A DNA stretch of 64,000 nt from Prorocentrum cordatum (lineage: Eukaryota), in contig CAUYUJ010000314.1 of the NCBI GenBank assembly GCA_963575745.1, positions 1 through 64,000 of the forward strand, given 5' to 3'. Positions 686 through 44,600 of this stretch are shown here, in pieces. Under the pieces are notes generated by a model. That model did no database searches. It worked only from the letters and a program-made list of their open reading frames with translations, and was not told the DNA's origin. A program made the position numbers and the translations under genes. Each line of letters opens with the position of its first letter. Position 1 is the stretch's first letter.

Positions 686-2830
686 TACTGTCGAGCGGGT
701 TCGATCCGCGGCACGGAGTGCCGTCGCGAATGTCGCGGCGGAAGAGCATCAGTCAGCCCGACCCCAGTGGGGAACCAGCAGTATGTCCACGGAGAGGGGC
801 ATGGACGCTTGGGCGGCAGCAGCTCGAGCCCTGGCACAGCGTGCCGAAGCAGGGGACAGTCCCCGGGGCGGTGGCCCAGAAGAGGATGACGGCTTCCGAA
901 CGGCCGACGACGGAGTGTGGGCCGACCGCGGCACGAGGCAGTCGCGGAACGCGCCAGGCCCGCAGCCGAGGCGTGGAGTCGCTATTGCGGATGGGGTTCG
1001 TGGAGTGATTGGGGCACTCACGGATTGCGTTGGCCTGTGTGGGGGAGTTCCTGGTCCGAGGAGCAAGGGCGCTGGGGCCGGAACGTGGCGTGACATCCGC
1101 CTGGCGCGGGTGGGCGACGGAGGCCAGGTCCGACCTGGGTCGGGCTCGGACCGCCGAGTCCAGCGAACGGTCAGATACTTGGACCTGGAACGGCTGGCGG
1201 GGCTGCCGAGCCGTCGGCGGAGCCGCGGGAGACGGCGACAGGCGCGACAGGGAAGACGAGAAGTATGTCTCCGAGTGGGATGGGAAGTCTGTGCCACTCC
1301 ACACCCCCGAGCGACGGGTGAATATCTTCGAGCTGGGCACCGCGATCCCGCCGCGGCGGCGGAGCGGCCGGCTGCTCTCCAGGCTCAAGGGGGATGCCGA
1401 GACGAAGACGGAGAATCTCGACGAGGATTTGTGCCCGACGGCGTCCAGATGCACCTGCGCTAGTTACCTGCGCTGCAAGTACGTCCAGCAGGAGACGCTG
1501 AAGGTCGGCGCCCTGGTGGGCGAGTTCGTGCAGAAGCTCGCGCGCAATGTCGGCGAACAGGTGCTGGGCATCGAGACGCGCTACGAGACGAAGACTCGCA
1601 AGCTGGAGGAGGCCATGGACGAGTCTCTGAGCATGCACCTGAAGGCCCACTAGTTCTTGAAGAAGTTGCGCGTGGGAGGCAACGAGGAGAGCCAGATCAT
1701 CGCGGGTGCTGGCAACGAGCATGTCTACGAGAAGCTAGGGGACTCCGCCAAGGCATGCCTGCCCCGCGTCTCGATGCCGCGGAAGACGCCGGCCCTGCCC
1801 GCGGGCGCGGGCGAGGGGGGCGGCGCGCGCCGAGAGTGCCTGAACCGGGGCCGTCGAAGGCCTGGATGGTCCACTGGTCGCGGCGGCCGTCGCCCCGTGC
1901 ACGCAGTGCATGGTGCCCTGGAGGACTACCTTGGCGATGCCGCCGACGACGACGGCGAGTGGCCCGAGGATGCGCAGTTCGACGAGGAGATGGGTTCCGA
2001 GGGCGATCCGGGGGCGGAGGAAGCGACCGAGCGCGGGCGCATTCCCGAGGAGCTGCTGGCCTTCCCGACGGACAACACAGCGATTATGACCCGGGCGAAG
2101 AAGGCCCGTGCGGAGGCGGAGAAGGCGCGAGACTTTACCGCGGCGGCGCGAGGAGCGGCAGCGGCGTGAGCGCCGAGCGGATCAAGAAGCTCAAGCAGAC
2201 GCTTCCGTGCCAGCGCCGCGGGCGGCTGGGCCGCCACCCGGAGTGTCCGAGGGCCCCGTGGCCAGGGTTTGGGCAGGCCGGTGGCCGCGGTGAGCCGCCC
2301 CGTCGGCGAGGGGGGGCCGACGCCAGAGGAAGCGCTCGCGTTCGCGCGGGTCGCCGGGGCTGAGGGCGAGCTTTAGCTGATCGTGGTGAACGCGGCGCAA
2401 GTCCGCGGCGGGGCTCTCGTGGCACGGGCGACTGTCGACGTATGTCAAGAGGACGCGGGGGTGCGAGCTCGCGGTTGTGAAGGGGCGCGAGCCCTATCGG
2501 TTCGGTCCGCCCTGGCAGCGCGATCTATGACCAGAGAGCGGTGCTGGCGCCCACGGAATTGGTTGTGGTGGTGGTCACTGCATAAGGGAAACAGAATCCC
2601 GAGCAGAGCAACACGCACCACGACCACGACGACGCCGACGACGACGACGACGGAGACGAGGCGCGCTTACGATCCGCACCGAAGCACGGATTTGGGAAAG
2701 GGCCCACCCTGCAGGTTCGGTTAAACAGCACATCGTTGAGCGGTGCTGCAGCCTCCCCTGAGCACAGGCCCCCCCAGAGCATCAGCCAGACAAGTCGGGT
2801 TTGCACCCTCATGCCTTGCTGGGCTCTGGG

Positions 2831-2902
2831 CGCGTTTCGGCACCCTCTCCCCCAACCTCGTCAGGGCCACCGACAAAAGAGAGGGCGGCGGTGGCCGACG
2901 CG
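2831..2902 (-). ncRNA. Type III hammerhead ribozyme, copy 1
   Basis: Minus strand reads CGCGUC^GGCCACCG-loop-CGGUGGCC CUGACGA GG-loop-CC GAAA CGCG. The CUGANGA/GAAA core is intact, with a GUC cleavage triplet (cut between 2897 and 2896), stems I and II closed and stem III open. Confidence 0.9.
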
Positions 2903-3272
2903 TCCCCGAGCTAAGAAGCTCACAGCGCCGCGGCTCAGAGAGCCGGGAAGACAGACAGACAGAAGGGCGGACGGACAGCCAGGCGGCGTGCAATCCCTGG
3001 CAAGCCAAGTGGGTGGTCACTGCATAAGGGAAACAGAATCCCGAGCAGAGCAACACGCACCACGACCACGACGACGCCGACGACGACGACGACGGAGACG
3101 AGGCGCGCTTGCGATCCACACCGAAGCACGGATTTGGGACGGGGCCCACCCTGCAGGTTCGATTAAACAGCACATGGTTGAGCGGTGCTGCAGCCTCCCC
3201 TGAGCACAGGCCCCCCCGGAGCATCAGCCAGACAAGTCGGGTTTGCACCCTCATGCCTTGCTGGGCTCTGGG

Positions 3273-3344
3273 CGCGTTTCGGCACCCTCTCCCCCAACCT
3301 CGTCAGGGCCACCGACATGGGAGAGGGCGGCGGTGGCCGACGCG
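3273..3344 (-). ncRNA. Type III hammerhead ribozyme, copy 2
   Basis: Same core 442 bp away (cut between 3339 and 3338). Stem III extends to GGGCGCGU/ACGCGCCC, and loop I CCCUCUCCC is complementary to loop II GGGAGAGGG. Confidence 0.92.
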
Positions 3345-4897
3345 CCCCCGAGCTAAGAAGCTCAAAGCACCGCGGCTCAGAGAGCCGGGAAGACAGACAG
3401 ACAGAAGGACGGACGGACAGCCAGGCGGCGTGCAATGCCTGGCAAGCCAAGTGGGTGGTCACTGCATAAGGGAAACATAATCCCGAGCAGAGCAACGCGC
3501 ACCACGGCCACAACGCCGACGACGACGACGACGACGGAGACGAGGCGCGCTTACGATCCGCACCGAAGCGCGGATTTGGGAAAAGGGCCCACCCTGCAGG
3601 TTCGGTTAAACAGCACATCGTTGAGCGGTGCTGCAGCCTCCCCTGAGCACAGGCCCCCCCAGAGCATCAGCCACGGAATTGGACGGAAAAGGAGTCGCGG
3701 TCCGATTCAGCCTCGCGGACGAGGGCGAGCCGCTCAAGGAGTTGAGTTCGGGGCGCGTGGCGATGTCTGTCCTCGCCGCTGGCGCGGAAGCTGCAGCGGC
3801 CGCGAGCCTGTGCCGCGGCGGTGCCGAGGTCGCTCTCTACGGGCGCGGCCTGTCACAGGAGGGCGCGCGCTGTGCGCTGCAAACAGGCGGGCGGCCGAAC
3901 GACGACGAGCGAAACGAGGCGATGGGGGGCGAGCGAGGCGAGGCCGCGGCGGCGGCGCGACCGCGGCCCCTCCTGGTTCAGGACTCCCGCGGCAGCGAGC
4001 CGGTGAGATCCTGGGTTGCAAGGGCGCCTGGGCGCGAGCGGATGCCGACGTGGCGCCCGACGGTCGCGCAATGTCGCGCCAGGGCGGTGCGAGGGGCGTT
4101 GGCTCTGCAAATGGCATTCCTGGTCTGGATGGCCTGGTTGCAGGAGCTCCTGGTGGGGTTGCTGGAGAAGGAGGTGGAGGCCTTCCGGCAGAGGGCGGGC
4201 CGCCCTCGGAGCATCGAGAAGACGCCAGTTAGTGGCGCCAGCCATGCAGGAGCTGGGGTTGCGTCGGGGTTGAGCGGAAGTGGAGACTCCTGGTCAACCG
4301 CGGCTTGCGCCCCGGGAAAAGACGGGCGCCTCCCGGGAGCGGGGGGCTTCGGAGGGCGACCCGAGGACTGCCCTGCTGAAGCGGTTGACGAAGATGGTGC
4401 TGGCGGAGTTGCCGGAAGAAGCTTCGGTCAGGGACATCGGGTGGGCGCGAGCGGACCGACGCAGCGAAACAGGGGGAGAGCTCATCCGAGACGTCAGGCA
4501 GCACGCGGGCGACGTGCAGGCGGAGACCGAGTGGTTCCCGGTCCAGGGCCCGCGGCCGACGGGCCTGACTTCCAATGGGGAGTCCACTGAAATCGAGACG
4601 GAAGAAACCATTGACTTAAGCGGGCTCCAGGGGTGGGCCCGCGGTGTCGCGGGGCGCCGCGGCGGAGAACCGCGCGGCGCGACCGGCGCTGGCCGCCGCG
4701 AGGGCGAGTCGGGCCGGAAAGGGGGCAGCGCCCCCCGGGGCCGGCGCCGGGCGAGACAGGGCGCCAAGCAGGTCAGGAAGAGGTGCCAGGTGCTGCCCGC
4801 GAACGTCGTTCGCCGCGTGTGTGCTCGGAGGCTGGGTGCACCAGACCAGCGGGGGTCAGTGGGCCCGACAGCTTTGGGGCGCTGATCGAGTAGCGCG

Positions 4898-6250: not shown

Positions 6251-7679
6251 CGGGGCCTGCGGCGGCCTCGGCGACATGGGGGCCCTTGCCTGGGAGACGG
6301 CTTCCGCTCTGAATCATTTCCGGGGCCAGTGTGGCAGGGGCCCATCTCCGATCGGGTTCGGGGCAGAGAATGAAGCTGGTGGGCGAATGCTGGTGTGGAG
6401 GAAAGGCGGTGAGTTACCGTCCCTGCGTTGCCGAAGAAGGCGACTCGCTGGCCAGGCCGCTCAAGATTCGCGAACACTGTCAAAGTCACTGACCAAGACA
6501 AGGGGCCAGGATCTGGCCTGGCGAGCCGTGGCCGCGCGGGGCCGCGGCAACCTCCCGGACTGGAGTGAAGGGGGGCGCGCGTTCTCTCTCAGGCCCTTCT
6601 GCGCGGAAATGGGTCGCAGGGTGAACGAGCCAGAATGGTGCTGGCCAGCTGCAGTGTTCGGGCGGAAGATCGACAGCGCGTGGATGCAATGTGGTGGAAG
6701 GCCGCTCCGGGTCGCCCCAGAAAACTTGAGGGCGCTCAGTCCCGGGGAGGAACATCTGGCAGACGACGGTGAGCTGTGCAGGTCGCTTGGTGAAATCCGC
6801 CAGGCGATGAGCCTCGAGGAGTTCGAGGACCTGGCGGGGCTGAATCCCGTGCCGGAGGGCCTGGAGGCGGCGCCGACGGTCTGGTGCCGGGTGGGAATCC
6901 GTCGATAAAGCCCCCCCCCTCGGTTAGAGGGGGCGCTCCGGCTATGCCAGATGTTTGGGGCGAATGCGGCGCGGGCGATGCTGCCGCGCCCCCGGGGGCC
7001 GCGCGGGGGGGCGGACTGCCCTCGGGCCTCCCTCCCGAGTTGGAACGGGGCACGAACGCCCCGGGCTGGGCCGTGGCCGAGCAGGGACAACCAGTGAGGA
7101 GCCTGTATGACGCTTGGGCTCGGGTGACCCCTGAGGGGCGGTGTCCCTCGGAGAAGTGGCCGTTGCGCGCCGCCTAGGAGAAGCGCCGCGGGACGTGGCG
7201 CTGTAACGAACGCCAGGTCCGGTGGGCTCAAGTGATCAATCCCAGGGAGGTTCTCCGACCCCCCGCCGACCGCGTGCTCGAGCTGTTCGAGGAAGAGGAG
7301 AAGCGGATGCGCGAGCCGACGCTCGCCAGTGGAAGCGCCTGCGACGGCTAGGCGGCTGGGCGGGTGCGAGCGGGCCAGTCCTCGACCCGCGCGCGAAGTG
7401 AGGTCGGCGCGCCGCGGGGGAGCAGGGTCGTCCATGTTGGGCCGTAAGACCTAAGATCGAGCGTTGAAGTGTAAGGAAATCGCGCCGATGCATCGCGGGG
7501 ACTTCCGCGCAGCGATCGAGAAGGAGCGGGGCTGATGGCTGCGGTTTAAGGGTGACAGTGCTGGAGCCCGATAAGTCGGAGGAGGTGCTGCGAACAGTGG
7601 GCCGTCGGCGAATCCTCGGGGGCGACATGACATTGTAAGACAAGAGCGCGGCTCTGCGCAGGGCCGGGGCCCCGCTCCC

Positions 7680-7877
7680 GGCGCAAGCAAAGGCCCGTTT
7701 GCGTGTGCAGGGCCAGCGCGACCCCGACGCCAAGTTTGGGGCGGTCAAGACCAACGCCCCTGCGGTGCAGCTGTCGGGCTTCGGCTTTCCCGCAGCTGTC
7801 CGCGAGTCTCGGTTGGTTCTCCAAGCTGTCGACCGGGGACATCTCCAGCGCGCTCCTCCACATGGGGCCAGGAAGCG

Positions 7878-7928
<51 letters not shown>

Positions 7929-9106
7929 CGCCAGCCGCGGGGCTGTCTGCCCGGGTTAGAGCCGGGCCAGCTGCTCACATCGAGAAAAGGATACGCGGGC
8001 TGCCTGACGCCCCGCGCGCCCGGTTTAACGCCTTCCGCAAGGCCTTGGTCGACGAGATGGGCTGGAAGCAGTTGCAGCTGGACGCGGCTTTCGTCTGCTT
8101 CTACCGAGGCGACCGCCTTGCTGGCGCGTTGACCGTCCACGTGGGCGACTGCGTGATCGCTCGCGACGGGAGTGCGGAGATGCCAGGCAAGGAGGCCAAG
8201 CTCAGAGAAAGGCCCCCTTTCGGGTCCTGGACGGTGGTGTCTGGACAGGCCAACTGTGACTTGTGCATTGGCCGCCGGGTGACCGTGGACGGGGACTTCG
8301 TGGAGGTGGGCGTGCCGGAGTTCATCGACCGGCGTCTGGAGGAAGTCAATTGTGGCTGGACAGAGAAGGGGGGGACGCCACTCACCCCACTCGGCAGGGC
8401 AGAGTTTCGATCGGCGGTGGGCTTCCTGCACTGGCTGGCCGGACAGTGCCAGAATGACAAGGCCTTCGAGACGAGCCGATTCCACAGGCTGCAGCAGGAG
8501 CTCACCCTTGCGGACGCCCGGGAGCTGAACAAATGCATCAGGGACGTCAAAGCCAGCCGCGGCCCCTGCCTGAAGATCGTGCCTATCAAGGGGCGCATGT
8601 TGGTGGGCTGCTGGCACGACTCCTCGCTTGATGACAACGTTCGCGAACTCATCGAGGACGGCGAGGATCTCAATCTATACGGCCGTCGCAAGATCAGGTG
8701 GCAGACAGGGGCGGTGGTGGCTGCCGTTGATCTGAATTGCATCGGGCAGGAAGAGCCGCCGATATCCATCCTAGATTGGGGCAATCGGGCGAGCCGCCGC
8801 GTGGTGACGTCAACCGTATCCGCCGAGACGGCGGCGTGCCTAGTGGGCCATGGTATGGCCCACTCCATGCCGACGCTCCCATGCGAAGCCTTGCGTGGAT
8901 GGAGCAACGCGCTGGTGGTGGAGTACGGCGAGGCGCAGATGCCGCTTGCACTGTTCATTGACTGTCGGAGCCTGCGCGATCGTGTGAAGGTCGAGGACAA
9001 TATCCCCGATGATCGGCGCGACCCAGCGGGGCTCTCCGCGCTGAGTTCTCACGTGTCGCGCGGCCCGCGACGAGATGAGAACAAAGGGGTTGAGGTGGTC
9101 ACCTAG
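7680..9106 (+). pseudogene. Copia reverse transcriptase and RNase H remnant
   Basis: KARLRVQGQRDPD, GDISSALL, GLPDAPRARF and LTVHVGD (decayed HVDD) are RT motifs. LDWGNRASRRVVTSTVSAETAA and LFIDCRSL are Ty1 RNase H motifs. Interrupted by (GT)n at ~7879-7923. Confidence 0.9.
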
Positions 9107-10829: not shown

Positions 10830-10976
10830 TGTTGCGAATCACTGCTGCTACATCCTCCTACCTCCCTCCCCGACGCAAGCCCTCCCGACGCAAGGGCGGA
10901 AGGAGGTCGTGGCATCTTGACTCGCCCCATGTGCGGGGCACGACCGTTTGTGGTGAAAAAGCTCATCACACCGACG
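10830..10976 (+). repeat. 3' LTR
   Basis: TGTTGCGAATCACTGCTGCTACATCC...CTCATCACACCGACG, homologous to 513-672. Confidence 0.85.
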
Positions 10977-28540: not shown

Positions 28541-29782
28541 TCACCAGACGTGGCCCTTCAACCTGGCCATGGCGACGGCCGAGCCGAGCTCGAGAAACAT
28601 ATCTGGACAGCTGGCGCGCCTGTAGCGCCACGCCCAGAAGTGCACCCAGTTCTCGAGCTGCGCCTGCGACTCCTTGCTGTACGTGTTCATCGTGGTTGGG
28701 ACGACGTTCTTCACGTGCGACCACAGCCCGTCCTGGAGCTGCGTCCCGCCGTAGCAGCACAGGACGTCGCCCCCGCTCAGGGTCAGCGTCTTGACAGTCG
28801 CCCAGATGCGCTTGGCGTGCTTGACCTTCGTGTGGTTCTCGAGGCGGCGGTAGCACCGCGCTCCGTCTGTGTGCCAGATCAGCACGTCGGCCCCCGTGTG
28901 AGCTGAGATCAGCGGCGCGGTCTCATCCGTGCTCTCGGGGCGCGTCGGGCCGCCACGGACCGCATAGAAGGGCGGCAGCATGTGCACGACGGCGTGTTCG
29001 TGGTCTCCGCGCTTGCACATGCCGAACACGCGGATGTGCATGTTGCGCCCGTTCTTGAGCTGGACGACCCGCAGGGTCGTGGCGTCGGTCTCGCACTGGC
29101 CGCTCAGCACGATCGACTTCTGCTCTTCCCTCGAAGCAGCCGAGACGATCTCCAGCAAACTCTGCCTGACCGCCTCGCACTGCTTGTGGCCCATCTTGGC
29201 AATCAGCGCCATGTCGGCTGTACTCATGCGGGACGTCAGGGCGCCGCACGACAGGAAGGCGACGCCCGCCAGCTTCGGGAGAGGCACTTCCACATCCGCC
29301 CACGTGCCGCTCGTGACCTTCACCTGCACCGAGGACGACGAGCAGGCCTTGCGCTGACACCTCTGGACTGGATGCCGCTTCTCGCCCCTGTGAATCACCG
29401 AACCCAATGGCCATCCGCACCTGGGGCAAACGTTCTCGGAGGGGTCGCCGAGGTACCCCGCCTGGACCATCAAGTCGTAAGCATCCTTGGTCTTCAGAGC
29501 CCTGAGGTCCTCGTACGTGTAGATCTTGGCTAAGGAAGACCTGCCGCGCCGCACGCGGGACACCCGCTGGCGCTTGGGCGTGTAGAACACGCCCGTGGCT
29601 TCCAAGCGCTTGCGTTTGGCCTGGGCCGCCTTGCGCGCCTTCCGCGCCTTGGCCAAAATGTCGCGGCGGCGCGAGGCGGCCTGCACCGACCGCTTGTTGC
29701 GACGCTTCTGGGGGAAGCGCTGCCCTCGCGTGCGGCTTCGACCCCTGGCCTCGGAGGCGGCGGGGCGACGGTGGACGGTCAT
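28541..29782 (-). CDS. Merlin/IS1595-family DDE-type transposase (~413 aa from ATG 29782)
   Basis: Basic N-terminus, Zn ribbon CPRCG...RCQRKAC, and catalytic motifs CETDAT, IWHTDGARCY, HTKVKH and GGTQLQDGLWSHVK. Uninterrupted ORF. Confidence 0.85.
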   Translation of the reverse strand: MTVHRRPAASEARGRSRTRGQRFPQKRRNKRSVQAASRRRDILAKARKARKAAQAKRKRLEATGVFYTPKRQRVSRVRRGRSSLAKIYTYEDLRALKTKDAYDLMVQAGYLGDPSENVCPRCGWPLGSVIHRGEKRHPVQRCQRKACSSSSVQVKVTSGTWADVEVPLPKLAGVAFLSCGALTSRMSTADMALIAKMGHKQCEAVRQSLLEIVSAASREEQKSIVLSGQCETDATTLRVVQLKNGRNMHIRVFGMCKRGDHEHAVVHMLPPFYAVRGGPTRPESTDETAPLISAHTGADVLIWHTDGARCYRRLENHTKVKHAKRIWATVKTLTLSGGDVLCCYGGTQLQDGLWSHVKNVVPTTMNTYSKESQAQLENWVHFWAWRYRRASCPDMFLELGSAVAMARLKGHVW

Positions 29783-30182
29783 CCCTGGCTCCAGGCGCGA
29801 TAGCACGGGCGAGGCAGTGCGCGAGAGGCGCGGGCACCCGCGGCTCTGGCTGCCGATTCGGCCAAGAAACGGCTGCGGCGATGACAGCAACCATACCGGA
29901 TGGACGGCGATGGCGGCGGCGGCGGCGACGACGACGACGTCTGCGGGGGCGGCTGGATTTCTTAGAACGGCAAAAGAAAATGGCATGATAACGCGCGGTA
30001 CTTGTGGATAACCCTATCAAGACACAACATGTTGGCGGCGCGCGCCCCCAGCTCATCTGGGGCGCAGCGGCGCGCGCCACCTCGGCAGCGCGCGCGGCAT
30101 CAGCGCCCGAGCTGAGGGTGCCATCGCTGCCCGCGAAACCCGCGCGCCGCACCTGCCCGCCCGCGCTCTCGCGGCCGCCCGC

Positions 30183-35454: not shown

Positions 35455-36755
35455 CGCACACCCCTCACACGTTTCGTGGCCCCATAGGGAGCTCCACCGA
35501 AGGCCCCAGTGGCAGGGTTCGCATGCCGCCCCCACCCCACTTTGGCACACCCCTCACACGTTTCGTGGCCCCATAGGTAGCTCCACCGAAGGCCCCAGTG
35601 GCAGGGTTCGCATGCCGCCCCCACCCCACTTTGGCACACCCCTCACACGTTTCGTGGCCCCATAGGTAGCTCCACCGAAGGCCCCAGTGGCAGGGTTCGC
35701 ATGCCGCCCCCACCTCACTTTGGCACACCCCTCACACGTTTCGTGGCCCCACAGGGAGCTCCACCGACGGCCCCAGTGGCAGGGTTCGCATGCCGCCCCC
35801 ACCCCACTTTGGCACACCCCTCACGCATTTCGTGGCCCCATAGGTAGCTCCACCGAAGGCCCCAGTGGCAGGGTTCGCATGCCGCCCCCACCTCACTTTG
35901 GCACACCCCTCACGCGTTTCGTGGCCCCATAGGTAGCTCCACCGAAGGCCCCAGTGGCAGGGTTCGCATGCCGCCCCCGCCCCACTTTGGCGTACCCCTC
36001 ACACGTTTCGTGGCCTCATAGGGAGCTCAACCGAAGGCCCCAGTGCCAGGGTTCGCATGCCGCCCCCATCTCACTTTGGCACACCCTTCACACGTTTCGT
36101 GGCCCCATAGGGAGCTCCACCGACGGCCCCAGTGGCAGGGTTCGCATGCCGCCCCCACCCCACTTTGGCACACCCCTCACGCATTTCGTGGCCCCATGGG
36201 GTGCTCTACCGAAGGCCCCCGTGGCAGGGTTCGCATGCGTCCGCGCCACCCATGTCGACACACCCTTGACACGTTTCGTGGCCCCATAATGAGCTCCACC
36301 GAAGGCACCAGTGGCAGACTTGGCATGCCGCCCCTCGCCCATTTCGGCCCACCCCTCACACGTTTCGTGGCCCCATAGGGAGCTCCACCGAAGGGGCCCC
36401 AGTGGTTGCGGTCGCATGCGTCCCCACCACCCATTTGGGCACACCCCTCATACGTTTCGTGGCCCCATAGGGAGCTCCACCGAAGGCCCCAGTGGCTCCC
36501 CACCACCGTTTTCGGCACACCCCTCACACGTTTCGTGGCCACATAGGGAGCTCCACCGAAGGCCCCAGTGGCTGCGTTCGCATGCCTCCCCACCACCCAT
36601 TTCGGCACACCCCTCACACGTTTCGTGGCCCCATAGGGAGCTCCACCGAGGGCCCCAGTGGCAGGGTCCGCATGCCTCCCCACCACCCATTTCGGCACAC
36701 CCTTCACACGTTTCGTGGCCCCATATGGGAGCTCCACCGAAGGCCCCAGTGGCGC
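35455..36755. repeat. 89-bp satellite array
   Basis: Unit CACACCCCTCACACGTTTCGTGGCCCCATAGGGAGCTCCACCGAAGGCCCCAGTGGCAGGG... with period 89. Further arrays at ~38985-40310, 41945-43445 and 54050-54200. Confidence 0.92.
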
Positions 36756-38675: not shown

Positions 38676-41600
38676 ATGCAGTGGTGGAGCGCCCAGGCCC
38701 CCAGCCTCGAGGCCGGCTCGAGGTCTTCGCAGCAGAGGAAAGCGAATCAGGGCGGGAGGCGTGCGTGCGTAGCTCGTCTCGACGGGCTCAGCGAATGGGA
38801 TCACGTTTTCTTCTTTTCCGGGCCATCTTGTGGAGCTGGGTCCTCGTTTTGACGAGCCAGTGCCCCGCGCCCCCTCCTTTCCTCCTACCCCTCCTCCCCT
38901 CCCTTCTTCTCCTCTCCCTCCTGTCCTTTGCCTTCCGCATGAGTCTACCAGTTCGTTCGGTACACTCCCCGCGCGTTGCTTGACCCCATTCGGAGCTCCA
39001 CCGAAGGCCCCAGTGGCAAGGTACACGTGCGTCCGCACGACCCATTTCGGCACACCCCTCATACGTTTCGTGGCCCCATGGGGAGCACAGACGGCCACAG
39101 TAGCAGGGTCCACATGCGTCCGCACGACCCATGTCGGCACACTGCTTGCACGTTTCGTGGCCCCAGAGGGAGCTCCACCGAAGGCCCCAACGGCAGGATC
39201 CACATGCATCCGCTCGGAAGGCTCCAGTTGCATGGTCCACATGCGTCCGCACGACCCTTTTCAGCACACCCCTCACACGCTTCGTGGCCCCTCAGGAAGC
39301 TCCACCCAATCCCCCAGTGGCAGGGTCCACGTGCGTCCGCACGACTCATTTGGGCACACCTCTTACACGTTCTGTGGCCCCTTAGGGAGCTCCACCGAAG
39401 GTCCCAACGGCAGAATCCACATGCGTCCGCCCGACACATGTCGGCGCACTCCTCACGCGTTTCGTGGCCCCAAACGGAGCTCACCGACTGCCCCAATGGC
39501 AGGGTCCACATGCGTCCGCACGACCCTTTTCGGCACACCCGACACGCGTTCCGTAGCCCCACGGGGAGCTCCACCGACGGCCCCAGTGGCAACGTCCACG
39601 TGCGTCCGCACGACTCATTTGGGCACACCTCTTACACGTTCCGTGGCTCCATTGGGGAGCTTCACCAAGGGCCCTCATGGCAGGGTCCGCATGCGTCCGC
39701 CCGACACACCGACACATGTCTGCGCACCCCTCACACGTTTCGTGGCCCCATAGGGAGCTCCACTGAAGGCCTCAAGCGGTAGGGCCCAGATGCGTCTGCA
39801 CGACCAATCTTGGTACACCCCTTGCACTTTTCTTCGTGGCTCCATCGGGATTTCCACCGAAGGTCCCAGTGGCAGGGTCCACCTGCGTTCGCCTGGCCCA
39901 TGCCGACACACCCCTCACGCGTTTCTCACCACCCGCCAAACCACCCCAACCCAACCCGAAAGCCTCGATTTGCCCTCCATTTCTAGTGGGGGGGGTCGGG
40001 GAACATTGACAAAACACATGGAACACTAACCCCCCCCAAGCCGAAATTCGGGAGGGTCTACAAGGGCCCGCACGACGCATTTCGGCACACCCCTCACACG
40101 CTTCGTGGCCCCATAGGAAGTTCCACCGAAGATCCCGGTGGGAGGGTCCACATGCGTCCGCCTGACACATGTCGGCACACCCCTCGCACGCTTCGTGGCC
40201 CCAGAAGGGAGCTCCACCGAAGGCCCCCGTGGGAGAGCCCACCTGCGCCCGCCCGACCCATTTCGGTACACCCTTCGCGCGCTCCGTGGCCCCATAAAGG
40301 AGCTCCACCGACGACAGCTTTCACACCTGCGTTATATTCAAACATGCCCATGGTCGGGCCCTTCGCCAGGATATGATTCTCCAGAAGCTGCGCTCAGCGG
40401 ATGCCTCTTCTCCGCCCTCCCCCTCCTCCCCGCACCCTCTCTCTCCTGGTGGTGTCTTTTTTCTGCTGCTCCTCCTCCGGGCCGCGCTTCTGTGGCTCAC
40501 GTCCTGGCCGAAAAAACAAATCGACATCACTCTCTCCGTCCACCCGTTCTCCCACCACGGCAGCAGGATAGGGCAGGGCCGCCGTCACATGTTGCTGTTG
40601 CTCCTAGTGTTTTTCACTCCGTCGGGGCCTCTGGCCGCACCCTCGGCCAGCTGTCACCTCCTCCTTCTCCTCCTCCTGTTCTGTTTGTCAATCAACTCCT
40701 CCTCCTCATCCTCCTCCTCCTTCTCCATCTCCTCCTTCCATCTACCTCATCTCAAACTCGTATTTCATTGGCTGCTCAGGTGTACCTTGCATGGTGACGT
40801 GTAGCCGCTCCGGCCCAAGCCGGGACGGCGCCCACGGCTGCCATGCAACGAAGCGATGGATTGTGAGGCGGCCAGCAACCTCATCCGAAACGCCTCACGG
40901 CGCTCGGCCGCACGCCTGTGTCTTTCTCAGCCGACAGCCCTTGTGGGCGTTGTGACAGGTCGGGGGGGAGGAGGGAAGGGAAGGGGAGGCCACACATCGC
41001 ACTCTACTTCGCACTTCCCTCGAAGGGATTCGTGGATTACACAGGCGTTCGACTGGGTCATCAACAAGCTGTCCGATATTTTAAGCAGTATCCTACCACA
41101 GGACAAGTTGTTTCAGGATCAGATTCCAAACTATGCGTTTCACGTTTTTATCCTGCTGTTCAACGTTGCTCAGTCAACCCCGAACCTAATTCTATTCGCG
41201 CTGTCAGATTCAGATGCGCACGTCATATTTTGGCTTGGATTGATCCCAGGATACGTCAACATCAGTGTGCCATTCTTCTTGCTACTTCTGAATATCTCTT
41301 TTTGGGCGATGACGCTGAACAATGTGAGTTACAAGACCGTCAGCACATTCATTTACGTTGTCTTCTTGGTCGTGGGGCTAATGATGATCGGAGCGTCGTT
41401 GCTGGTCGGCATCCACAGCGCCTCTCGGCGCCACTCCGCTCTCTCCCTCGAGCAGAGGAGTGGCCGAGCAAGAGGTAGAGAGAGAGAGAGAGAAACAGAG
41501 AGAAAGAGAGAGCGAGAGAGAGCGAGAGAGAGAGAGAGAGAGCAGAGAGCGCATCCCTGCTCCCTCCCTACCGCTCCTTCCTTCCTCGCTCCTGCGGTGG

Positions 41601-44600
41601 CGTACGCATCCGCACTGAAACAGTCACACGCTCCATCGCGAGGCACCGCGACGCATCGACCTCGCTCCTCGCACCGAGAGCTTTCTTAAATCATGGCCAG
41701 AGGCGTGTGCGCAGACGAGGGGGGACCAGGTACGTGTTGAAAGAAGAAAGAGAAGAAGGGGCCGTGAACTCTGGGGAGATATCATTGCCCTGGCCATGAC
41801 GTCTACGTTGTTTATGAGTTTTGTTTCTTTGCTCAACCATCCTGTTGTGTTGGGTCCTTTGGAAGAGACAGCGTCTCGCGTCCTTCATCTCCTTCTCCTC
41901 GCCATCCTCCTCCTCTCCAGTGCCCTGCGCTCCGCATCTATCTGTTTCGTCGCGCCCATCACACGCTTCGTCCCCCAGCTAATTTCGGCACATCTCTCAC
42001 ACGTCTCGTGGCCCCATAGGAAGCTCCACCGAAGGCCCCAGCTGCAGCGCTCGCATACCGCCCCCGCATATTTCGGCACACCCATCACACGTTTCGTGGC
42101 CTCATAGGGAGCTCCGCCGAACGCTGCTGTGGCAGCGCTCGTATGTGTCCCCCGTGTCAATTTCGTCACACCGTTCACACGTTTCGTGGCCCCGCATGGG
42201 GGCTCTATCGAAGGCTCTTTGGCAGCGCTCGCATGGGTTTCCCAGCCCATTTCGGCACACCCCTCGCACGTTGCGTGGCCCCACAGGGAGCTTCGGTGAA
42301 GGCTCCTGTGGCAGCGCTCGCGTGCGTCTCCGCGTCCGTTTCGGCACTACTCACACGTTTCGTGGCCCCATGGGGAGCTCCACCGAAGGCCCCAGTGGCA
42401 ATGCTCGCACGCGTCCCTTGCACCCATTTCGGCACACCCCTCGCACGTTTCGTGGCTCCGTTGGGAGCTCCACAGAAGGTCCCACATCACTCGTCGAAAT
42501 TGAGCGCAAGTTTTAGCCGCGACCTGGCGGCGCCCCCCGACCCCCAATTTCAATGTTCACGCCGACGCCAGCGACTTCGAGATTTTCTTCGGACCCCGCC
42601 GGACGCGATGCGCCTGTCGATGAACATTGAAATTTGGGGGCGACGGGGGCGGGAAAAACTTGCGTTCAATTTCGACGAGGGTTGCAGTTGCATTGCTCGC
42701 ATGCGTCCCCCCGCCCATTTCGGCACACCCCTCAAACGTTTCGTGGCCCCATAGGAAGCTCCAACGAAGGCACCAGTGGCAGTGCTCGCATGCTTCCCTC
42801 GCATATATTTCGGCACGCCTCACGCGTTTCGTGGCCCCATATGGACTCCACCGAAGGCCCCAGTGGCATGAGTCCCCCCCGCCCATTTCGGCACACCCCT
42901 TACACGTTTCGTGGCCCCACAGGGAGCTCCGGCGAACCCTGTGGCAGTGCTCGCATGCTTCCCTCGCATACCTTGCGGCAGCACTCACACGTTTCGTAAC
43001 CCCATAGGGAGTTCCACCGAAGGCACGCATGGCAGTGCTGGCATGCGTCCTTCCCGCCCATTTCGGCACACCCGTTACACGTATCGTGGCCCCATAGGAA
43101 GTTCCAACGAACCCAGGGGCAGTGCTCGCATGGGTCCCTCGCATGTATTTGAGGCACACCACTCACACGTTTCGTGGCCCCATAGGGAGCTCCACCGAAG
43201 GTTCTGGTGGCAGCGCTCGCACGGGTCCCCCCCCGCGCCCATTTCGGCACACCCTTTGACATTTCGTGGCCCCATTCGGGAGCTCCACCGAGAAAGACCC
43301 AGTGGCGGTGTTCGCATGCGTCCCCCGTGTCAATTTCGTGGAGCTCCACCGAAGGCCCCAGTGGCGGTGTTCGCATGCGTTCCATTCGCGCCCATTTCGA
43401 CACACCCCTCACACGTTTCGTGGTCCCCATAGGGGGTTCCACGGAAGACGATGGCCACAACTGGTTTACCCACAATTTCAAATGGCTGGGTCCCTCGTCA
43501 GTTTTTTTTTCCTGTTTGGATTAGTTTGTCGCTTCCAGCGGTTCGCGGCAGCCCAGAACAGGCAACGAAGGAACGAGGACAGTGTTTCCCTGCGCGCGCT
43601 CGGCCCGAGCAAAGCCGCCATTCGAAGCGCCTGCGAGCACGGGTGGGGCGGTCGCGCCCTCGAGCCGAAGACTTATAGAGATTCCGCTTGGGCGGAGGAG
43701 GGGCAGCAGAAGACGTCAACACATTGGGGGACCATGTCGGTGAACTGCTCGGGGCTCTGGTGGGGCTCTTGAAGGTCACTGGCGGATGGTCGCCTGGTCG
43801 AGGGGGGGAGGGGGGGGAGGAGGAGGCGGAGGATGATAAGGAAGAGGAAGAGTCAGGACAAGGATGAGGAGGAGGAGGAGGAGAAAGATGAAGAGGTGGA
43901 TGAGGAGAAGAAGCAGGAGGAGGAGGAGGAGGAGAGGAGGAGGAGGAGGAGGAGGGAGGAGGAGGGTGGAGGAGGGTGGAGGAGGGTGGAGGGTGGAGGA
44001 GGGTGGAGGACATGCAGTACGCCCGCTGTCCCCCGCAAGCGGGGCGGACATGCAGTACGCCCGCTGCCCCCCGCAAGCGGGGCGGACAGATACAGACCTG
44101 GGTTGTCGCGGACAGCCTGTGGTACAGCTGCGGGCACGACCCGCTGACGGCCAAGATCCAGTCGGAATGGGACGTCCTGGCCAAATTCCAGGTTGAACGC
44201 GTGGAGGTGGAGGAGGAGGAGTAGGAGTAGGAGTAGGAGTAGTAGGAGGAGGAGGAGGAGGAGGAGGAGGAGGAGGAGGAGGAGGAGGAGGAGGAGGAGG
44301 AGGAGGAGGAGGAGGAGGAGGAGGATGAGGAGGAGGAGGAGGGAAAGCGGGGGGAGGCGGAGGAGGAGGAGGAAGAGGAGGACGGAGGAGAACGCATTGC
44401 TTGTGCGGAATTTTGGAAGAACGGGGGAGGAGATTGGAGGGAGGAGGCAGGACGAGAGAGAGAGGAAAGAGGATGGAGGAGGAGGCCGAGCGGCTGGAAA
44501 TGGACTGCCCTCCTGCCGCCCAGGCGTGATTTGGCCCCCCCCCCAACGTGGCACTGGCGGGAGGGTGGCGTGCGGGTCACCCCGGCGCCCCGAAAGGTGG

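Follow-up and report, generated by a model that had tools for sequence, protein, structure and literature searches.

A tandem 442-bp repeat inserted with a target-site duplication in a Prorocentrum-type dinoflagellate: a candidate non-LTR retrozyme with atypical type III hammerhead motifs

How did a 1.1-kb block of non-coding tandem repeats come to interrupt an ORF-like sequence of a dinoflagellate, and what part might the hammerhead-like motifs on its minus strand have played? We analyzed these questions in a stretch of 64,000 nucleotides (64 kb, hereafter the window). Tandem Repeats Finder placed the array at positions 2570-3673, with a period of 442, 2.5 copies, 95% matches and no indels, and its structure was also followed by self-BLAST and by the register of its units. 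This bears out the preliminary description of the locus, which had proposed 2.5 head-to-tail, non-coding monomers of 442 bp; indeed, no internal ORF, LTR or reverse transcriptase (RT) was found within the array. The GC content is 65%, and copies 1 and 2 are identical at 427 of their 442 positions. Read in the ribozyme sense, i.e. on the minus strand, the array runs through monomer positions 108-442, then 1-442 and finally 1-327, counted from the predicted cleavage site described below, and its ends (positions 108 and 327) fall mid-monomer, as had been claimed. A single unit, at 2897-3338, is complete between two predicted cleavage sites (H17 at 3339 and 2897), the remaining two being incomplete, and the earlier count of two complete monomers is reduced to one. 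No autonomous partner, RT or second insertion site was seen in the 64-kb window, and none of its 103 ORFs (16 + 72 + 15, some of them scanned twice) had a Pfam RT or endonuclease domain. Two other identities were ruled out: a DNA transposon, since the ends lack terminal inverted repeats, and the pseudo-LTRs of a Penelope-like element, since the units follow one another with no intervening sequence and the window yielded no RT.

The array splits a host sequence that we could follow on the plus strand by tblastn with P0013, P0014 and 11 further relatives of the interrupted ORF. The left part (1078-2558) belongs, in degenerate form, to a multi-copy ORF family of Prorocentrum, and alignment to P0013 and P0014 resumes in the right part (3676-3918). 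Both P0013 and P0014 are continuous across the site, with a single copy of the target, and are equivalent to an empty site. In the alignment of P0013, residues 408-422 correspond to window positions 2514-2558 and residues 422-470 to 3676-3849, the two flanks meeting at the same Glu codon, within both copies of the target-site duplication (TSD). For P0014, tblastn matched residues 84-502 to 1078-2430 and residues 578-645 to 3730-3918. The TSD itself, CCACGGAATTGG, can be read directly on either side, at 2551-2562, inside the host frame (..APTEL..), and at 3671-3682, where its first three nucleotides (CCA) overlap the end of the repeat. Because this CCA may just as well be the end of the repeat unit (microhomology), the TSD measures 9-12 bp; the duplication reported in the preliminary description is real, but its length of 12 bp is ambiguous by these three nucleotides. 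As a chance control, an exact shared word of at least 12 nt was found in 55 of 20,000 random pairs of sites 1104 nt apart (0.275%) in this repeat-rich window. Since the relatives cross the site with one target copy, we consider the array to be a true insertion; on this comparison, it is a 1.1-kb en-bloc insertion into a pre-existing ORF-like sequence, flanked by a 9-12 bp TSD. The flanks are unique inside the 64-kb window, which holds no paralogous empty site. Seven extra bases (TTGTGGT, 2563-2569), unlike both the monomer and the target, separate the left TSD copy from the array. The 3-nt microhomology at one junction and the seven untemplated nucleotides at the other fit target-primed reverse transcription.

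Named matches of the host ORF family came from Prorocentrum cordatum only, in agreement with the dinoflagellate host proposed earlier, which we can narrow to Prorocentrum or a close relative. A haptophyte source, which GC content and the marine runs had at first suggested, was discarded in the light of these matches. The family has no Pfam domain. A search for a dinoflagellate spliced-leader motif gave no matches with up to 3 mismatches and is uninformative; no tRNA genes were found. A Copia-like reading of the host region was set aside, as it came down to an Atlas lead at 8099-9106; Pfam detected nothing even at E<=1, and a homolog search with 8099-9106 returned no matches.

What do the repeated units encode at the RNA level? 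A loose type III hammerhead descriptor matched the 64 kb only twice on both strands, in each case within the array. Candidate A (3265-3352, minus strand) is predicted to be cleaved after C3339, and candidate B (2823-2910, minus strand), which repeats this motif one period further downstream, after C2897; the predicted sites are exactly 442 nt apart. Both the positions on the minus strand and the type III topology of the preliminary description were thus recovered. Hammerheads of this type leave helix III open and close helices I and II by loops; motifs of type I or type II were found neither in the array nor in the window. In candidate A, helix III is formed by 3347-3340 and 3277-3270 (8 bp) and helix I by 3338-3331 and 3314-3307 (8 bp, GGCCACCG/CGGUGGCC), closed by a loop 1 of 16 nt (3330-3315). 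The CUGACGA box follows at 3306-3300, then helix II, with 3 bp (G-C, G-C and U-G; 3299-3297 and 3283-3281) under a loop 2 of 13 nt (3296-3284), and the GAA at 3280-3278. The core is complete in both copies (CUGACGA, GAA, A15.1-U16.1, G10.1-C11.1 and the GUC triplet), and the family consensus has no change there. The two copies of the 88-nt motif differ at three sites in loop 1 and one in outer helix III, whereas their core and helices I and II are identical. An A-C mismatch, shared with the family consensus, reduces helix III of candidate B to 5 bp, and loop 1 of this candidate has UUU where candidate A has CCA; the C to U changes in loop 1 retain G-U pairing with loop 2. The read-derived consensus states within the motif are 3345 C>T and 3318 T>A. 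Judged from its sequence, the array has a complete type III hammerhead core at each junction between units, for which cleavage is predicted.

Simulated sequence (150 simulations under each of two composition models) gave 0.14 loose matches per 64 kb, and 0.000-0.007 of the quality of the two candidates. A search with the Rfam hammerhead model had been suggested as a check and gave a negative answer: no hammerhead family matched at the gathering score in the window, nor at E<=10 in the region 2400-3800 (1401 nt) or in the 94-nt motif by itself, for which only hairpin-like miRNA models scored. Rfam also detected no second ribozyme in the array region at E<=10. The preliminary description had called the hammerheads canonical. 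This holds for the core, but not for a helix II of 3 bp under a 13-nt loop or a loop 1 of 16 nt, and the candidate is probably an atypical type III hammerhead with a short helix II.

Loops 1 and 2 are complementary over 10-12 bp, and a duplex between those of candidate A has a predicted energy of -21.8 kcal/mol. The same complementarity is the basis of a rod hairpin, which is both the minimum-energy fold of the motif (-52.0 kcal/mol) and its centroid (-47.3 kcal/mol), compared to -31.3 kcal/mol for the hammerhead fold computed without the pseudoknot. The 8 bp of helix I are a further complementarity, which plays no part in the rod. We dropped an argument from co-transcriptional folding, as the folds of nascent-chain prefixes were ambiguous and did not cleanly favor helix I. 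A viroid-like global structure was likewise unsupported: compared to shuffled sequences, folding of the 442-nt circle was not unusual on either the ribozyme strand (z = -0.94) or the other strand (z = -0.16).

To what extent does the unit exist beyond this locus? About one monomer's worth of its sequence words was present in 20 of the 24 marine runs listed, from 14 studies, and the flanks were present in none. In two runs, whose DNA or RNA nature is a guess, the assembly of the unit closed on itself at 442 nt (a 472-nt contig whose ends overlap by 30 nt). It should be noted that closed 442-nt contigs are also expected from a DNA tandem array. The unit accounted for roughly 0.02-0.03% of the letters in runs X1 and X2, a share by summed contig depth that is not a copy number. 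No intermediate-frequency variants were seen in the most deeply covered run. Compared to the family consensus, copy 1 has five private changes and copy 2 has ten, with one shared, a pattern that fits copies without differences at the time of their insertion. Taken from these sequence data, the 442-bp unit is a homogeneous multi-copy family. The RNA signal consisted of a single contig, 270 nt long and of depth 2, from one metatranscriptome, and carry-over of DNA may account for it. RNA runs X16-X20 held 6-8% of the unit words, to which we give no evidential weight. Neither an exact 24-nt core word (searched in metagenome, viral and genome contig collections) nor an exact 22-nt word from 3237-3258 (searched in metagenome and viral contig collections) was found, and exact matching of this kind says little about absence.

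The explanation that we lean towards is that the array is a retrozyme-like retroelement of the non-LTR kind, which is non-autonomous, resides in a Prorocentrum-type dinoflagellate and bears an atypical type III hammerhead with predicted cleavage. We propose that arrays of this kind would be transcribed on the window minus strand, and that the hammerhead would fold with 8 bp in helix I, 5-8 bp in helix III and few in helix II, with the pairing of loop 1 with loop 2 as a brace. Two self-cleavages would release the complete 442-nt unit from the transcript of this locus, and such monomers would be ligated into circles. The RT of an autonomous non-LTR or Penelope-like element would copy a circle about 2.5 times round, and the multimeric cDNA would enter the genome at a staggered nick through target-primed reverse transcription. 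As the array ends lie away from the cleavage site, the template would have exceeded one monomer in length. The stable rod formed by the hammerhead region would represent an inactive conformer. We put forward a bolder version only tentatively, and hold it to be rather doubtful as it stands: the family may be an active circular-RNA family of hundreds to thousands of units, with a new hammerhead variant in which the 10-12 bp between loops 1 and 2 would both brace a ribozyme nearly devoid of helix II and form the inactive rod.

It is unlikely, though a serious consideration, that the array is instead a mobile or retroposed piece of a satellite, its hammerhead-like motif being the chance by-product of a GC-rich inverted repeat and its RNA a rod that does not cleave. 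The folding data point in this direction, the rod being the minimum-energy and centroid fold, as do the recognition by Rfam of hairpin-like families only and the marginal helix II; helix III and the loop-loop pairing could simply be parts of the hairpin, and with very many windows scanned, rare chance motifs are expected somewhere. However, motifs of such quality are expected at most 0.007 times per 64 kb, and yet these lie in a TSD-flanked tandem unit; in addition, the rod leaves the complementarity of helix I unused, and the core, with its G10.1-C11.1 and A15.1-U16.1 pairs and GUC triplet, is intact in both copies and in the consensus. Hammerheads are known to trim tandem-repeat RNA in the satellite transcripts of newts and schistosomes. 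An active hammerhead might do just this here, the array deriving from a retroposed, uncleaved linear multimer that never passed through a circle. The 2.5 copies, the mid-monomer ends, the TSD and the microhomology would be explained equally well, and the read assemblies hold no evidence for a circle. The one observation that speaks against this reading is the ratio of one shared to 15 private changes, which fits repeated copying of one monomer, although in so homogeneous a family the units of a genomic array would show the same. We judge the linear route to be quite improbable.

We would give little credence to the idea that the array is a DNA copy of an independently replicating, viroid-like circular RNA living in or with the dinoflagellate, in the manner of a retroviroid (cf. 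the carnation CarSV RNA/DNA). Its 442 nt and 65% GC are within the range of hammerhead viroid-like RNAs in the available text of PMC5680766, and unit words occur in six RNA libraries from six studies, with one assembled. Against this, the ribozyme is found in one polarity only, the global fold is neither rod-like nor exceptional, and the RNA signal is trivial beside the DNA signal. Just as remote is a capture at the DNA level, in which a staggered double-strand break would have trapped a piece of a satellite array or of an extrachromosomal circular DNA. Ends within a monomer and filler bases at one junction do arise in end-joining repair, but the clean 9-12 bp TSD in an otherwise intact host frame is the mark of a staggered cut by an endonuclease rather than of random break repair.

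How would the proposed retroelement relate to known ones? To our knowledge, retrozymes have so far been of two kinds, those with LTRs and type III hammerheads in plants, reportedly described by Cervera et al. in 2016, and tandem ones with type I hammerheads in animals, linked to Penelope-like elements. The metazoan non-LTR retrozymes, as presented in the accessible part of Cervera and de la Pena 2020 (PMC7229834), are tandem units of 150-450 bp with one hammerhead each and no LTR, PBS, PPT or ORF, have a TSD of >4 bp when one is present, and are proposed to spread via circular RNA and a non-LTR or Penelope-like RT. Our array resembles them in its head-to-tail non-coding units, the hammerhead at each unit junction and a TSD above 4 bp (here 9-12 bp). 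It differs in that theirs are of type I with a GC content below 50% in the same text (PMC7229834), whereas the units here are of type III, have 65% GC and reside in a dinoflagellate; nor is a Penelope-like element seen in the window. Plant LTR retrozymes, according to excerpts of two sources (PMC7761336; 10.64898/2026.07.22.740005), have two LTRs of about 350 bp, a central region, a tRNA-Met PBS, a PPT and a 4-bp TSD. They share with our unit the type III hammerhead, a GC content above 55%, the lack of coding capacity and a length of several hundred nucleotides, but the array consists of plain head-to-tail units without a central region, and its TSD is 9-12 bp long.

The closest parallels to the motif itself are atypical type III hammerheads with Watson-Crick pseudoknots that join loop 1 to loop 2, which part of PMC7936874 describes from HDV-like circular RNAs, termites and dipterans and reports to cleave in vitro; the typical hammerhead in that text has helices of 6 bp and 4 bp and small loops. 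Type III topology, long loops and a paired loop-loop contact are common to both, and those hammerheads were also missed by standard models and needed custom descriptors. They differ, within the portion available, in pairing 4 nt (GCCR/YGGC) and having a 6-bp helix II, compared to 10-12 nt and 3 bp here, and they have no sequence similarity to our predicted hammerheads. Penelope-like elements, in the parts of PMC4209133 and PMC8557442 on which we draw, carry hammerheads in their pseudo-LTRs and insert as incomplete tandems that have additional bases at one of their ends, and protist versions have a long helix III and are active as monomers. The hammerhead in a direct repeat, the partial tandem insertion and the extra bases at one end are all found here; in contrast, theirs is of type I, and their repeats flank an RT (and GIY-YIG) ORF, whereas nothing lies between the repeats of our array. 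The preliminary description knew of no tandem non-LTR element with type III hammerheads in an alveolate. This claim of novelty has to be tempered, as tandem hammerhead repeats were already mentioned for an alga and oomycetes in the section of PMC5680766 at hand.

Should the motif not cleave, the locus would still provide a clean block of tandem repeats inserted with a TSD. The motif may be of interest in its own right, as a 3-bp helix II that would be compensated by a long loop-loop helix and is invisible to Rfam models. A tandem, TSD-flanked type III element in a dinoflagellate would break the pairing of LTRs with type III and of tandem units with type I hammerheads, would count alveolates among the hosts of retroelements that carry ribozymes, and might account for some of the repeats that burden the very large genomes of dinoflagellates. 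If the tentative picture of an active circular-RNA family were true, the same RNA would switch between cutting and a stable circle, retrozymes would extend to alveolates, here in the 4.75-Gb genome of a bloom-forming dinoflagellate, and the tandem non-LTR life style would not be tied to type I hammerheads or to animal Penelope-like elements.

A single array at 2570-3673 holds 2.5 head-to-tail copies of a 442-bp unit (period 442, 95% matches, no indels by Tandem Repeats Finder), and its limits and period were also given by self-BLAST and a repeat finder, bearing out the tandem arrangement read earlier from the sequence alone. Copies 1 and 2 are identical at 427/442 positions; the third is partial, and differs by microsatellite changes of its own and by a shift of one base. 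LTRs, an internal region and any sizeable ORF are absent from the array; its open frames are as expected at 65% GC, and the unit length of 442 is not divisible by three. A scan of 103 window ORFs gave no reverse transcriptase, integrase or GIY-YIG domain.

The 12-mer CCACGGAATTGG is present on either side of the array, at 2551-2562 and 3671-3682. The three leading bases of the right copy could equally be the final bases of the repeat, and the duplication is therefore 9 to 12 bp long. Seven bases between the left copy and the array (2563-2569) match neither unit nor target. The flanks are unique within the window, and an exact shared word of at least 12 nt in the same geometry occurred in 55 of 20000 random position pairs (0.275%), taken 1104 nt apart within this repeat-rich window. 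As an empty-site test, relatives of the upstream ORF-like sequence at 1009-1650 (plus strand) were sought. A word-indexed search gave only two proteins, both named Prorocentrum cordatum (54-60% identity), and an exhaustive search gave 67 representatives, of which 13 (the two best and eleven others of 448-1341 aa) were compared with the window by tblastn. One relative, P0014, spans the array, with residues 84-502 at 1078-2430 and residues 578-645 at 3730-3918. When the flanks were aligned separately to a second relative, P0013, the left flank (2514-2558) corresponded to residues 408-422 and the right flank (3676-3849) to residues 422-470, the two alignments joining at one glutamate whose codon lies inside both 12-mer copies. 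P0013 is uninterrupted and has the target once, whereas the window has it twice, around a 1.1-kb foreign block. P0013 thereby takes the place of an empty site, and the repeat on either side of the array is established as a target-site duplication. A tandem block longer than one unit was thus shown to have inserted en bloc with a 9-12 bp duplication, with microhomology at one junction and filler at the other, and with ends at monomer positions 108 and 327, away from the predicted cleavage site. The preliminary description was right to see a true target duplication, but the length of 12 bp that it gave is not firm.

The host copy of the interrupted ORF is degenerate, with an in-frame stop at 1651-1653 and three different frames in 2377-2562 compared to its relatives, and before the insertion it probably was a pseudogene or the decayed copy of a mobile element. 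Pfam domains were absent from the host sequence and from twelve relatives, of which eleven represent the host family and one (P0001) is a relative of the ORF at 28544-30013. Further along the same strand, a 491-aa open frame (7631-9106, plus) has Atlas neighbours that include Ty5/RVT_2-type clusters; it has no Pfam match and no homolog by word-indexed search, and may be the decayed tail of a copia-type polyprotein, in the orientation of the interrupted ORF family. Both are enclosed by a 159-nt direct repeat (513-671 and 10830-10975, 75% identity, 10.3 kb apart), which could represent LTR remnants of an old element that received the array.

On the minus strand, the unit junction reads, in order, helix III 5′ strand, GUC, helix I, CUGACGA, helix II, GAA and helix III 3′ strand, with cleavage predicted after C3339 in copy A (3265-3352) or C2897 in copy B (2823-2910). 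Helix I (GGCCACCG/CGGUGGCC) has 8 bp and a 16-nt loop, and helix II (GGU/GCC) has 3 bp and a 13-nt loop. Helix III is 8 bp long in copy A; in copy B it is shortened to 5 bp by an A-C mismatch, which is the family consensus state. The conserved core matches that of active hammerheads throughout, G10.1-C11.1 and A15.1-U16.1 included. The loop 1 variants CCA, CCU and UUU, found between the copies and the consensus, all preserve G-C or G-U pairs with loop 2; the only other variable place in the motif is the outer pair of helix III. Hammerhead motifs of type I or type II were found neither in the array nor in the window. The motif had been called a canonical type III hammerhead: core and type III topology agree with this, but a helix II of only 3 bp is not the canonical form.

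Several results speak against the hammerhead candidate. The Rfam search proposed as a check in the preliminary description came back negative, with no hammerhead model matching the window at gathering score, or 1401 nt around the array even at E<=10; for the 94-nt motif alone at E<=10, only hairpin-shaped miRNA families scored. Helix II is far below the usual length, the usual form being 4 bp with a 4-nt loop in the data cited from PMC7936874. The minimum-energy fold is a rod hairpin (-52.0 kcal/mol in copy A, -47.3 in copy B; z-scores of -3.0 and -2.5, respectively) and not a hammerhead, which alone reaches -31.3 and -21.0 kcal/mol, respectively. The rod is built on complementarity between loops 1 and 2, whose duplex is worth -21.8 kcal/mol in copy A and -17.7 kcal/mol in copy B. 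As part of a hammerhead, this pairing would form a loop-loop pseudoknot, and by our estimate, rather than by computation, rod and hammerhead would then be similarly stable. Type III hammerheads with Watson-Crick pairing between these loops are known, cleave in vitro and needed custom descriptors for their detection, according to PMC7936874; those described there have a loop pairing of 4 bp and a helix II of 6 bp, compared to 3 bp here.

In public sequencing data, between 6 and 31% of the sampled words were present in 20 of the 24 runs listed, from 14 studies, and in 14 of those runs the share was about a quarter to a third, equivalent to about one consensus monomer; the array flanks were absent from all runs listed. 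Run labels comprise three coded organisms and marine metagenomes. Four runs were aligned to one monomer. In one (X1) the unit was covered by thousands of short contigs. At 11 places all runs with cover read a letter other than that of the window at nearly full depth, and no intermediate-frequency variant was seen at any place; this makes the family very homogeneous. Decay of the window copies is slight: copy 1 has 5 private changes and copy 2 has 10, and 1 change is shared, a pattern that fits copies identical at insertion. In run X2, three contigs share with the unit only 3219-3276, a module of 43-52 nt that directly follows the hammerhead in the ribozyme sense; the sequence on either side of it is dissimilar, and one contig is deeper than the unit itself. 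The module may be common to another repeat or to an autonomous partner.

By analogy with retrozymes (PMC7229834, PMC7761336, PMC4209133), we somewhat favour a retrozyme-like origin through minus-strand RNA, self-cleavage, a circle, reverse transcription and insertion. Transcription of the minus strand would be followed by predicted self-cleavage after GUC, giving 442-nt monomers that would be ligated into circles. A borrowed non-LTR or Penelope-like reverse transcriptase would copy the circle for more than one round, and the cDNA would integrate by target-primed reverse transcription. A contig of 472 nt with a 30-nt overlap of its ends, obtained for the unit from two runs (X2 and X6), closes into a 442-nt cycle, as expected equally of a tandem array or a circle. 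The sole RNA trace, a 270-nt contig of depth 2 in one metatranscriptome (X15), was treated as no evidence of expression.

The main alternative, which we consider possible though unlikely, is a mobile piece of satellite DNA that holds the hammerhead motif by chance. With a loose type III descriptor (minimum helix lengths of 4, 2 and 3 bp), exactly two sites were found on both strands of the 64 kb, copies A and B, compared to 0.14 matches per 64 kb in simulated sequence, or 0.000-0.007 when the helices had to reach 6, 3 and 5 bp (two composition models, each with 150 sequences of 64 kb). The core, helix I and helix II are free of the 15 differences between copies 1 and 2; the 88-nt motif holds 4 of the 15 vs. 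3 expected, and core sparing is therefore no statistical argument. Exact-word scans of three sequence collections gave no relatives of the unit for covariation. Still less probable is an active ribozyme with a linear multimer as the template. We give very little weight to DNA copies of an independent viroid-like RNA, and the 442-nt circle showed no excess structure over dinucleotide shuffles (z = -0.94 for the ribozyme strand, -0.16 for the other). Capture of DNA at a break seems just as improbable.

The ORF at 28544-30013 (minus strand) encodes 490 aa with high third-position GC; over 79% of its length it shows 91% identity to a protein of Prorocentrum cordatum. Both window ORFs with named relatives, this one and the flanking ORF family, point to that species, and the window GC of 61.6% compares with 59.7% for P. 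cordatum (4.75 Gb) in a review table (PMC11453091). The earlier attribution to a probable dinoflagellate is thus supported, as Prorocentrum or a close relative. A search for a dinoflagellate spliced-leader relic found none, which says little. By language-model features only, the 28544-30013 ORF resembles IS1595/ISXO2-type DDE transposases; neither it nor P0001 has a Pfam match, and it may be a Merlin-like DNA transposon. Large satellite arrays of 88-91-bp units, also scored as 178 and 267 bp, lie at 35456-36753, 38999-40315 and 41981-43324, together several kb; descriptors found no hammerhead-like motif in them.

The element resembles animal non-LTR retrozymes in its tandem units, long duplication, lack of LTR and apparent lack of PBS and PPT, but these have a type I hammerhead and a GC content below 50%, neither of which applies here. 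Plant LTR retrozymes have a high GC content too, and a hammerhead of type III, the form of the candidate here; their LTR architecture and 4-bp duplication are absent from this element. In the collection of papers searched, nothing paired a retrozyme with a dinoflagellate, or a hammerhead ribozyme with Symbiodinium; papers pairing hammerhead ribozyme and dinoflagellate concerned other subjects by title and abstract. Among the matches listed, no retrozyme paper was on protists by title, although supplements may name further taxa, and neither 'ribozyme' nor 'Penelope' occurs in the text of a 2024 review on the genomics of dinoflagellates. Hammerheads in protist Penelope-like elements have already been described, as noted in PMC4209133. 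The claim of novelty agrees with these searches, but is narrowed by tandem hammerhead copies of Chlamydomonas and oomycetes that a 2017 review (PMC5680766) mentions as putatively retrozyme-like. Provided that the ribozyme is real, the candidate element would be novel within these bounds.
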